Of a stretch of DNA of 64,000 bases, positions 12,388-15,037 are shown piece after piece. Under the pieces are notes generated by a model. That model was not told the origin of the DNA. It worked only from the letters and a program-made list of their open reading frames with translations, and ran no database searches. The stretch lies in NCBI RefSeq assembly GCF_044647545.1, contig NZ_CP172818.1, one strand, 5' to 3'. The position numbers and the translations under genes are program-made. Position 1 is the first letter of the stretch, and each line of letters opens with the position of its first letter. The DNA comes from Escherichia coli (GTDB lineage: Bacteria > Pseudomonadota > Gammaproteobacteria > Enterobacterales > Enterobacteriaceae).

Positions 12388-13788
12388 ATGAGTCAGAATG
12401 TTTATCAATTTATCGACCTGCAGCGCGTTGATCCGCCAAAGAAACCGCTGAAGATCCGCAAAATTGAGTTTGTTGAAATTTACGAGCCGTTTTCCGAAGG
12501 CCAGGCCAAAGCGCAGGCTGACCGCTGTCTGTCGTGCGGCAACCCATACTGCGAGTGGAAATGCCCGGTACACAACTACATCCCGAACTGGCTGAAGCTC
12601 GCCAACGAGGGGCGTATTTTTGAAGCGGCAGAACTGTCGCATCAGACCAATACCCTGCCGGAAGTGTGCGGACGTGTCTGCCCGCAAGACCGTCTGTGCG
12701 AAGGTTCCTGCACCCTGAACGATGAGTTCGGCGCAGTGACCATCGGCAACATTGAGCGCTATATCAACGATAAAGCGTTCGAGATGGGCTGGCGTCCGGA
12801 TATGTCCGGCGTGAAACAGACCGGTAAAAAAGTGGCGATTATCGGTGCAGGCCCGGCGGGTCTGGCGTGTGCGGATGTCCTGACGCGCAACGGCGTAAAA
12901 GCGGTTGTCTTCGACCGTCACCCGGAAATTGGCGGCTTGCTAACCTTCGGTATTCCGGCCTTCAAGCTGGAAAAAGAGGTAATGGCGCGCCGCCGTGAAA
13001 TCTTCACCGGCATGGGTATTGAATTCAAACTCAATACCGAAGTGGGCCGCGACGTACAGCTGGACGATCTGCTGAGTGATTACGATGCCGTGTTCCTTGG
13101 CGTCGGGACTTATCAGTCAATGCGCGGCGGGCTGGAAAACGAAGACGCCGATGGCGTGTACGCAGCGCTGCCGTTCCTCATCGCCAACACCAAACAGTTA
13201 ATGGGCTTTGGCGAAACCAACGACGAACCGTTCGTCAGCATGGAAGGTAAACGCGTGGTGGTCCTTGGCGGTGGCGACACTGCGATGGACTGCGTGCGCA
13301 CGTCTGTACGCCAGGGGGCAAAGCACGTTACCTGTGCCTATCGTCGTGATGAAGAGAACATGCCGGGTTCCCGCCGCGAAGTGAAAAACGCGCGGGAAGA
13401 AGGTGTTGAGTTCAAATTCAACGTCCAGCCGCTGGGTATAGAAGTGAATGGCAACGGCAAAGTCAGCGGCGTAAAAATGGTGCGCACAGAAATGGGCGAA
13501 CCGGATGCCAAAGGCCGTCGCCGCGCAGAGATCGTGGCAGGGTCAGAACATATCGTTCCGGCAGATGCGGTGATCATGGCGTTTGGTTTCCGTCCACACA
13601 GCATGGAATGGCTGGCAAAACACAGCGTCGAGCTGGATTCGCAGGGGCGCATTATCGCCCCGGAAGGCAACGACAACGCTTTCCAGACCAGCAACCCGAA
13701 AATCTTTGCTGGCGGCGATATCGTCCGTGGTTCCGATCTGGTCGTTACCGCCATTGCCGAAGGTCGCAAAGCGGCAGACGGCATATGA
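12388..13788 (+). CDS. gltD: Glutamate synthase small subunit GltD; C-terminus appears ~6 aa shorter than the K-12 protein as I recall it
   Basis: 466-aa [23 protein letters not shown]... with Fe-S cysteines and FAD/NAD(P) GxGxxG motifs; ends ...[12 protein letters not shown] where K-12 GltD (472 aa) continues. Confidence 0.93.
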
Positions 13789-13909
13789 GGTGTTCTGGAA
13801 AGCGCCTCGCATAATCTGAAGAAAACCAATGTAATACGCACATCTGGATTGTTACCGGCCGATGCAGATCCCGGCGTATAGCTGATTCCATTATTCAACA
13901 CTGCGCCAT

Positions 13910-15037
13910 ATGAAGGGACAGATAATGGAATCGCTCTCAGAAGGAACCACAGCAGGCTACCAGCAAATCCACGACGGCATTATTCATCTGGTCGATAGCG
14001 CCCGGACGGAAACGGTACGTAGTGTTAACGCGTTAATGACCGCCACATACTGGGAAATTGGCCGACAAATTGTCGAATTTGAACAAGGTGGCGAGACCAG
14101 GGCTGCGTATGGTGCGCAGCTAATCAAGCGACTATCAAAGGATTTAAGTCTAAGGTATAAGCGTGGGTTTTCCACCAGGAATTTATGGCAGTTTAAGAAT
14201 TTTTATATTTGTTTTCAACGAATTGAAATTGTGCAGACACTGTCTGCACAATTCACCCCCACAATTCGCCAGACACTATCTGGCGAATCTTGCCATTTAG
14301 CGCAACTTGCCAAATCTTTCCCCCTGCCCTGGTCCACTTACGTCCGTTTGCTTTCTGTTAAAAACGCTGACGCTCGTAGCTTTTATGAGAAAGAAACACT
14401 CCGCTGTGGCTGGTCTGCTCGTCAGCTCGAACGGCAAATTGCGACCCAATTTTATGAGCGGACACTACTGTCACATGACAAATCAGCCATGCTGCAACAA
14501 CACGCTCCTGCCGAGACGCATATTCTTCCGCAACGGGCGATACGCGATCCCTTTGTGCTCGAATTTCTGGAATTGAAAGATGAATATTCAGAATCCGATT
14601 TTGAGGAGGCGCTGATCAACCACCTGATGGATTTCATGCTGGAACTTGGGGATGATTTTGCCTTTGTTAGTCGACAGCGAAGGTTACGCATTGATGACAA
14701 CTGGTTTCGTGTCGATCTGCTGTTTTTCCACCGCCGTTTACGCTGCCTGCTAATCGTCGATCTAAAAGTGGGCAAATTCAGCTATAGCGATGCCGGACAG
14801 ATGAATATGTATCTCAACTACGCCAAAGAGCACTGGACGCTACCGGATGAAAATCCGCCCATCGGTCTGATTCTCTGTGCAGAGAAAGGAGTCGGAGAAG
14901 CGCATTATGCACTGGCTGGTTTACCTAACACCGTTCTGGCGAGTGAATATAAGATGCAACTACCTGATGAAAAACGACTCGCGGATGAACTCGTTCGAAC
15001 ACAGGCGGTGTTAGAGGAAGGCTATAGACGCCGTTAA
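13910..15037 (+). CDS. yhcG: DUF1016-family (PD-(D/E)XK nuclease-like) protein YhcG
   Basis: 375-aa ORF; length matches YhcG; contains two of the palindromic repeats described below. Confidence 0.85.
   Translation: MKGQIMESLSEGTTAGYQQIHDGIIHLVDSARTETVRSVNALMTATYWEIGRQIVEFEQGGETRAAYGAQLIKRLSKDLSLRYKRGFSTRNLWQFKNFYICFQRIEIVQTLSAQFTPTIRQTLSGESCHLAQLAKSFPLPWSTYVRLLSVKNADARSFYEKETLRCGWSARQLERQIATQFYERTLLSHDKSAMLQQHAPAETHILPQRAIRDPFVLEFLELKDEYSESDFEEALINHLMDFMLELGDDFAFVSRQRRLRIDDNWFRVDLLFFHRRLRCLLIVDLKVGKFSYSDAGQMNMYLNYAKEHWTLPDENPPIGLILCAEKGVGEAHYALAGLPNTVLASEYKMQLPDEKRLADELVRTQAVLEEGYRRR
14227..14253. repeat. Palindrome copy 1 (aattgtgcagaca-c-tgtctgcacaatt), perfect 13-bp arms, inside yhcG
   Basis: Read directly; shares the core cagacaCtgtctg with copies 2 and 3. 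Confidence 0.9.
14263..14288. repeat. Palindrome copy 2 (aattcgccagaca-c-tatctggcgaat), one arm mismatch, inside yhcG
   Basis: Read directly; 36 bp downstream of copy 1. Confidence 0.85.

Follow-up and report, generated by a model that had tools for sequence, protein, structure and literature searches.

In the 64-kb stretch of Escherichia coli contig NZ_CP172818.1 analyzed here (the window), the glutamate synthase genes gltB and gltD are followed directly by yhcG, a member of the DUF1016 family encoding a candidate defense nuclease, and then by nanQ on the opposite strand. The gltD open reading frame (ORF) codes for 466 amino acids, ends in ...EGRKAADGI and is closed by a TGA at 13786-13788. 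The ORF of yhcG begins after a gap of 121 bp on the same strand (its RefSeq-style start is at 13925), and the gap contains no ORF of a known gene. In the K-12-derived genome used for comparison, the order is gltB-gltD-gltF-yhcA-yhcD-yhcE::IS5-yhcF-yhcG, the distance from gltD to yhcG is 7.2 kb, and GltD is a 472-amino acid protein ending in ...AADGIMNWLEV. An earlier reading made from the letters of the window (referred to below as the sequence-only reading) had noticed that gltF and yhcADEF are missing and that GltD is about six residues short, and had cited the K-12 gene order; the ORFs and alignments agree with it on all of these points, and the K-12 protein does not stop at AADGI. Comparison of the K-12 island with the whole window by blastn and tblastx gave no match except in the yhcG upstream block (13793-13924). 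None of gltF, yhcA, yhcD, yhcE, and yhcF is found between gltD and yhcG, where there are no ORFs for them, nor is there any similarity to them elsewhere within the 64 kb.

The arrangement as such is common. In a survey of 5426 complete E. coli genomes, gltD and yhcG were located within one short interval in 3139, gltF-yhcA-yhcD were present in 1148, all of which are at least 99% identical to K-12, and gltD was situated directly beside nanQ, without yhcG, in 947 (the B2 type, e.g., ST131). All sampled genomes of the adjacency type have gltD annotated at full length, and their records exceed the window by about 65 bp. The same succession of gltB, a gltD of 472 codons, and yhcG occurs in Salmonella enterica, Citrobacter freundii, and Kluyvera, with an intergenic region of about 200 bp. 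The layout of this region is common to these genera, with a genus-specific GC-rich hairpin located 3' of the gltD stop codon, followed by a conserved block that starts at (G)TTCTGGAAAGC and contains the hexamers TTGACC/TTGTTA and TATTGA/TATAGC, 17 nt apart (18 nt in K-12). K-12 matches the other sequences up to 2 nt past the gltD stop codon (TAAGC) and again from the conserved yhcG upstream block onwards; as these are the only two matching sides, the yhc island is inserted between the terminator of gltD and the leader of yhcG.

Enterobacteria ancestrally have gltD and yhcG side by side, and most E. coli show this order, while the gltF-yhcADEF segment of K-12, which is the beta-class chaperone-usher "yhc" locus, is a minority, derived state whose insertion is found mainly in phylogroup A. 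In a published survey, the yhc (beta chaperone-usher) locus was found only in phylogroup A (PMC5216030). Nothing has been deleted from the lineage of the window, and the boundary of the island lies outside gltD. The block missing from the window is this accessory locus of phylogroup A, situated between gltD and yhcG; unlike K-12, the window has the empty arrangement of Salmonella, Citrobacter, and Kluyvera, with a boundary after the gltD stop codon and not within the gene. The sequence-only reading had mentioned ancestral absence in parentheses, and it is this alternative that holds. Its main proposal, a single deletion of about 6-7 kb with the left junction in the last codons of gltD, conflicts with the full-length GltD of the island-free relatives and with the end of the K-12 homology 2 nt past the stop codon. 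GltD was not shortened by island loss, either; its last residues are missing through an independent change of about 70 bp, private to this sequence, in surroundings that otherwise match genomes with an intact gltD base for base. The window thus shares the gene order of the ancestral allele but not its 472-amino acid GltD ending in M/L-N-W/Y-L-E-V, and the GC-rich hairpin between the gltD stop codon and the yhcG block, which is present in genomes of the sequence type (ST) 648 type, Salmonella, Citrobacter, and Kluyvera, is deleted from it.

Two lesions account for these departures (Table 1). In lesion 1, ATGAGGT (7 bp) stands in place of the 77 bp found in the relatives (TATGAAC...CTCCTTTC); the window reads GGCAT-ATGAGGT-GTTCTGG and the relatives read GGCAT-TATGAACTGGCTGGAAGTTTAAGCTCTGCCTCAGCGCCGCCTTCTCAGAAAAGAGTCGGCGCTGAAATTCTCCTTTC-GTTCTGG. 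Across the 3' end of gltD the letters of the window are GGCATATGAGGTGTTCTGG, the intact counterpart being ...GGCATTATGAACTGGCTGGAAGTTTAAGCTCTGCC.... The lost 77 bp carry codons 467-472, the stop codon, and, according to fold prediction, the hairpin TCAGCGCCG...CGGCGCTGA. The new TGA after Ile466 arises by the loss of one T (ATT ATG A to ATA TGA), and in the rest of the lesion about 72 bp including the hairpin are exchanged for GGT. Folding assigns to the lost segment a 9-bp GC-rich inverted repeat, which we take to be the presumed terminator of gltBD. A consensus terminator scan missed this hairpin in the relatives, its loop being too long, and folding was used instead.

Lesion 2 is located 75 bp downstream of lesion 1 and changes CCGGCAGATGCCCGGCG into CCGGCCGATGCAGATCCCGGCG, with the insertion CCGGCCGATGCAGATCCCGGC; an alternative reading is that the 6 bp AGATGC were duplicated in tandem, imperfectly. 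The lesion falls into the spacer between the hexamers TTGTTA and TATAGC, which would constitute the promoter of yhcG. This spacer measures 22 nt in the window, 17 nt in the relatives and the other genera, and 18 nt in K-12; a consensus promoter scan did not list the putative promoter (13849-13882). Apart from lesion 2, the yhcG upstream block of the window is identical to that of the relatives. A K-12 noncoding RNA listed in RegulonDB, G0-10703, has been reported as divergent and antisense to the 5' region of yhcG (PMC7967276).

Both lesions are private to this one deposited sequence. The junction of lesion 1 is absent from the 5426 E. coli genomes, and a scan of the JGI metagenome contigs with a 33-mer spanning it gave no matches; lesion 2 is absent from all 3143 genomes matching the intergenic region, the best of which matches at 95.5%. 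The exact 466-amino acid GltD is WP_400165077.1, found on one contig and in no other record among about 15 billion proteins, while the 472-amino acid form occurs on at least 1000 contigs.

Table 1. Features of the gltB-yhcG region (positions are those of the 64-kb window)
Feature	Position	Strand	Basis or remarks
gltB, glutamate synthase large subunit	7915..12375	+	annotation of the collinear region in NZ_CP033850.1, to which window 1-13784 has 0 mismatches; identical to ST648-type relatives
gltD, 466 codons plus TGA, without the last six residues MNWLEV of all relatives	12388..13788	+	ORF, alignments, TIGR01318 profile
Lesion 1, ATGAGGT in place of 77 bp	13785..13791	+	alignments
yhcG upstream block, conserved	13792..13909	+	begins GTTCTGGAAAGC; common to K-12, Salmonella, Citrobacter, and Kluyvera (alignment); blastn match of the K-12 island ends here
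Putative yhcG sigma-70 promoter	-35 TTGTTA 13849-13854; -10 TATAGC 13877-13882	+	read from alignment and sequence
Lesion 2, A to C at 13860 and five extra bases CAGAT at 13865-13869	13860..13869	+	alignment to relatives; in putative promoter spacer
yhcG, DUF1016 / PD-(D/E)XK nuclease, PADLOC candidate defense gene PDC-S02	13910..15037	+	identical to the gene of ST648-type relatives
Two in-frame palindromic units in yhcG	AATTGTGCAGACACTGTCTGCACAATT 14227-14253; ATTCGCCAGACACTATCTGGCGAAT 14264-14288	+	encode EIVQTLSAQF and IRQTLSGES; a decayed third unit follows
Hairpin ATTCTCCAGACACTGTCTGGAGAAT between convergent yhcG and nanQ	15053..15077	.	copy of the in-ORF unit with compensatory arm changes

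At the protein level, the truncated GltD scores 886.7 bits with the NCBIfam profile TIGR01318, above the cut-off of 482.95 bits. It covers positions 1-461 of the 467 positions of the profile, and the 472-amino acid relative covers 1-467; the loss amounts to 10.8 bits. The missing tail is conserved as M/L-N-W/Y-L-E-V in Escherichia, Salmonella, and Klebsiella. The alignment to the solved GltS small subunits of Azospirillum ends at about residue 468, and the Azospirillum tail is different and longer. Judged from these comparisons, GltD(1-466) would probably still work.

The first 25 kb of the window match about 90 complete ST648-type E. coli genomes (FDAARGOS_497, IMT16316, MS6198, ECONIH1, and others) at 100.0%, in two pieces that differ by 65 bp in length. 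Base by base, there are no mismatches to NZ_CP033850.1 in 13,788 + 21,109 + 2,566 + 10,256 bp and one in 15,596 bp, and all other differences are confined to 13785-13791, 13860-13869, 29376-29387, 38141, 50440-51069, and 53636-53744. At 29376-29387, between degS and mdh, the window has a clean empty site where FDAARGOS_497 carries IS4, with a 12-bp alignment overlap that resembles a target-site duplication. At 38141, between yhdP and tldD and about 35 nt 5' of the latter gene, the window has a private 2-bp deletion (AT). The accC-yhdT spacer (53636-53744) is of the island-free, K-12-like type, while the closest relatives, which have no single-nucleotide polymorphisms (SNPs) in the flanks, all carry an 8.7-kb island for a sugar ATP-binding cassette transporter, a kinase, and an aldolase; this spacer shows about 12 differences within 45 bp, C to T in many cases, and none of 4003 island-free genomes shares them.

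Another of these spots is located at 50476-51069, where about 600 bp of homopolymer-rich text (up to 18 A, 15 T, and 10 C in a row) occupies the place of about 780 bp of a DUF1444 gene and the region downstream of it. Its last 338 bp (50732-51069) contain 5% G, are still collinear with the true sequence (z=8 against shuffles), and are covered by no E. coli genome; small drop-outs of G and C precede the patch at 50440-50470. The whole patch, 50440-51069, is a base-calling or assembly artifact of the source record. As to the record itself, the contig with the 466-amino acid GltD measures 4,499,902 bp, compared with about 4.7-5.3 Mb for the SNP-identical ST648-type relatives, and the window is without about 10 kb of the accessory DNA of these relatives. 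These figures point to a strain with a genuinely smaller genome or to an assembly from which accessory segments were dropped.

Against this background, the lesion cluster at 13785-13869 is, on balance, probably also a sequence artifact, as judged from the deposited sequence itself. This origin is considered the most likely one because the same window contains the homopolymer patch and further private differences of the indel type, such as the G and C drop-outs and the 2-bp deletion at 38141, as well as the noisy accC-yhdT spacer, on a nearly SNP-free background. Such a combination, with close to no SNPs and several private, imprecise indel-type patches, fits residual consensus errors and not clonal divergence. 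The two gltD lesions are themselves imprecise, with filler bases, the loss of one nucleotide in a TT run, and an imperfect duplication, and they hit three conserved features at once, namely the C-terminus of GltD, the terminator hairpin, and the 17-nt spacing of the putative promoter. The variant is limited to one deposited sequence, and the same contig carries an independent, unambiguous error (50476-51069). According to this scenario, poor long-read data or a low-quality consensus would have left a residual error cluster that polishing did not repair, and in the real strain GltD would have its normal 472 amino acids, and the terminator and the yhcG promoter would be normal as well. Two unrelated things, an ancestral gene order and a small private lesion cluster, had been taken as one in the sequence-only reading. 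The indel-only differences, the homopolymer loss of 1 nt, the small imperfect duplication, and the net loss of sequence resemble the localized, indel-dominated, and polishing-resistant error clusters of long-read and hybrid assemblies, as does the G-poor homopolymer junk in the same window with its preserved collinearity. Several observations speak against an artifact. Typical consensus errors are smaller than the net loss of 70 bp seen here, and this loss is located beside 68 bp (13792-13859) that are perfect, which is unlike the textbook error pattern. The empty IS4 site and the island-free accC-yhdT allele look like real structural differences, so the strain is more than a known genome with sequencing errors. 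Finally, a real deletion of a hairpin by replication slippage is biologically plausible.

A recent, strain-private mutation is the most serious competitor, although it appears rather doubtful. In this case, about 70 bp would have been lost when replication slipped or switched templates at the terminator hairpin, which is GC-rich, and the spacer of the putative promoter would have grown to 22 nt by another, small duplication. The lost segment is centered on the 9-bp GC-rich inverted repeat, a classic slippage substrate, as in hairpin and quasi-palindrome deletions known from E. coli. The deletion stops exactly at the start of the conserved yhcG upstream block, leaving yhcG and its leader untouched; the truncated GltD remains far above the profile cut-off; homology to the solved small subunits ends at about residue 468, and the tail varies between genera; and the structural differences just mentioned appear to be real. 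Such deletions would leave a clean junction with a short direct repeat at both parental ends, but here the junction has nontemplated filler (GGT or ATGAGGT) and the loss of 1 nt instead of clean microhomology, an available CTGGAA repeat is unused, and a second, unrelated lesion follows 75 bp away. Two imprecise events within 85 bp also contrast with zero SNPs in about 63 kb, the junction recurs in no other genome, protein set, or metagenome, unmistakable junk is present on the same contig, and Escherichia, Salmonella, and Klebsiella all conserve the tail that is missing here. Two specific routes to such a deletion were rejected. Slippage between the CTGGAA repeats would extend the C-terminus of GltD, which is not observed; a template-switch origin of the filler finds an inverted microhomology, ATTATG/CATAAT, but the predicted product is mismatched.

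Origins that involve other alleles fare considerably worse. The single deletion of gltF-yhcADEF from a K-12-like ancestor, contradicted above by the gene order, could point to the right end that the lesion has in common with the K-12 island, and to the GAGGT in the filler, a 5-mer that is found 3' of the gltD stop codon in K-12 and B2 alleles. It is nevertheless hardly credible. About 90 ST648-type genomes have identical flanks, and each of them is without the island and has an intact gltD and the 53-bp terminator segment; the yhcG upstream block of the window is of the ST648 type and only 73% identical to that of K-12; and the island carriers are all at least 99% K-12-like, while the outgroups are without the island. 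To derive the junction from K-12/B2-type sequence on the basis of the shared GAGGT and GGT would require at least three extra events, in conflict with the ST648-type flanks, and this derivation was discarded. Short recombinational import of a divergent allele over 13785-13869 from an unsampled Escherichia lineage would suit a locus known to be hypervariable, with three or more major configurations, yet it is very improbable as well: between the lesions, the 68 bp agree fully with the ST648 allele, the putative allele is absent from the 5426 genomes, the protein collection, and the metagenomes, and other genera keep the full GltD tail and the terminator. A chimeric consensus with other alleles, considered for lesion 2 and for accC-yhdT, was rejected, as no alternative allele fits.

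The gltD-yhcG finding as originally given matters little. It is a case of K-12-centered expectation, since the "missing" gltF-yhc segment is an accessory insertion of K-12 and phylogroup A, and most E. coli have gltBD in place of the gltBDF "operon". The truncation in WP_400165077.1 is a peculiarity of a single record and should not be propagated as a natural variant until reads confirm it. The practical value of the analysis is a quality flag for the assembly, in which 600 bp of junk destroys the DUF1444 gene and further private indels occur. If the lesion were true, gltBD would be without its terminator, the promoter spacing of yhcG would be broken, and yhcG would be expressed mainly by read-through from gltBD; the strain would then be a small natural experiment coupling a candidate defense nuclease to nitrogen-assimilation transcription.

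A separate lead comes from yhcG itself. The protein matches the PADLOC model PDC-S02 (E=2.3e-133), and PF17761 and PF06250 are precomputed on near-identical proteins, which makes YhcG a candidate defense nuclease. In E. coli, the gene and its neighborhood contain a family of palindromes of about 27 nt with the form GAATT-NNN-CAGAC-N(3-4)-GTCTG-N'N'N'-AATTC. The variable triplet is self-complementary within each copy and differs between copies (GTG/CAC, CGC/GCG, TGG/CCA, CTC/GAG, and CTG/CAG, with CCG/CGG in Salmonella). Within the yhcG ORF the palindrome occurs as tandem in-frame units of 39 nt, of which K-12 has three (17920, 17959, and 17998 of its locus, L002). In K-12 and B2, one hairpin of the family is located 3' of the gltD stop codon, and a second one 3' of yhcG. 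The E. coli YhcG alleles of 349, 362, 375, and 382 amino acids differ by whole palindrome-encoded units of 13 amino acids, and two alleles of 307 and 326 amino acids have internal deletions that start exactly at the unit (proteins P0040, P0063, P0034, P0092, and P0064 in this comparison). The variation in unit number and the deletions starting at the unit mark the palindrome unit as a rearrangement hot spot. The encoded peptide is situated in a low-confidence loop of the AlphaFold model (residues 97-117).

The symmetry extends far beyond E. coli. It was followed through homologues of 29-59% identity from genomes of 24-65% GC, comprising 80 IMG/VR loci (L016-L095) and metagenome contigs. The stretch of about 10 codons immediately 5' of the LSWSHY motif is encoded by a perfect palindrome in 41 of 58 nonredundant genes, above the expectation from synonymous-codon resampling; the arms measure 7-15 nt, compared with about 4.5 expected from such resampling, with p<0.01 in 30 of the 58 genes. 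Palindromes with arms of at least 8 nt are concentrated (28 of about 60) in one bin of 30 nt on the 5' side of the Trp codon. When the register was fixed and 14 pairs were scored, Watson-Crick complementarity reached 0.64 at a center 18 nt 5' of the Trp codon, as opposed to 0.18-0.29 at any shifted center and 0.37±0.014 in 500 column shuffles, and at pairs 3-9 all four pair types are common. The encoded peptides differ in the manner that reverse-complementarity dictates, as in ICQTLSGKL, IASAVRTQL, IVNACVHNL, IVVSLIRQL, and ICYTLCSKL. The palindrome within the ORF, with covariation of its arms, exists at an unchanged codon position across bacteria and phages.

The mismatches in the palindrome show no bias towards G·U on the sense strand (12 versus 10), and the loops, of about 1-3 nt, are mostly 1 nt long; for these two reasons, symmetry at the DNA level is favored over an mRNA hairpin. 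An Rfam scan of the gltB-nanT stretch of the closest relative yielded no family at E<=1, which places the yhcG palindrome and the intergenic region outside the known RNA families. The 600-nt flanks of the 80 viral DUF1016 loci contained no further copies, except for tandem units in L072. Literature searches on DUF1016/YhcG palindromes and PDC-S02 retrieved no functional work and no description of the palindrome, and its conservation within YhcG/DUF1016 genes seems to be unreported.

Rickettsia palindromic elements, which are translated in frame, and REP/RAYT systems offer themselves for comparison, as yhcG too involves short palindromic DNA units. Those of yhcG are translated within the ORF, variable in copy number, and accompanied by extra copies in nearby intergenic hairpins. 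Unlike the elements compared, the yhcG palindrome is not dispersed through genomes; it occupies one fixed position in one family, with arm covariation over 24-65% GC. It is conceivable, and is put forward here tentatively, that the palindrome is a functional element at the DNA level that shapes the protein sequence and drives rearrangements in the gltD-yhcG-nanQ region, including unit amplification, internal deletions of yhcG, loss of yhcG in B2, and the island boundaries. The same proposal would regard the junction hairpins (15053-15077 in the window and those 3' of gltD in K-12 and B2) as extragenic copies of the 27-29-nt palindrome in the ORF. Leading ideas for its role are a cognate or autoregulatory site, a symmetric site for protein binding or nuclease action, or a self-perpetuating quasi-palindrome that would be kept perfect by template switching. 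The linker sequence of a protein family is apparently dictated by a conserved DNA palindrome, and this would make the function of YhcG/PDC-S02 experimentally approachable.

Some further observations concern these elements and their vicinity. The K-12 block from gltF to yhcG is flanked by two hairpin copies of the yhcG type (L002 10422-10450 and 18760-18788), and B2 strains (the 947 genomes) have the order gltD-hairpin-nanQ with one hairpin copy and no yhcG (L008, about 9420-9450); these positions are consistent with gain or loss of a block at the hairpin. Some DUF1016 genes contain a second long perfect palindrome in the N-terminal domain, located about 248 nt 5' of the Trp codon in L067, L069, L073, and L075 and about 201 nt 5' of it in L031 and L066; examples are TCGAGGCGGCGCGCAAGCGCGCCGCCTCGA and CTACCTATTTCGAAATAGGTAG, the latter lying over the conserved YxEIGR motif. 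Another presence/absence site is found nearby, where dcuC, annotated as an anaerobic C4-dicarboxylate transporter gene, is situated between nanR and sspB in the window (about 20952-22319) and in ST648-type genomes and is absent from the B2 genome L008.

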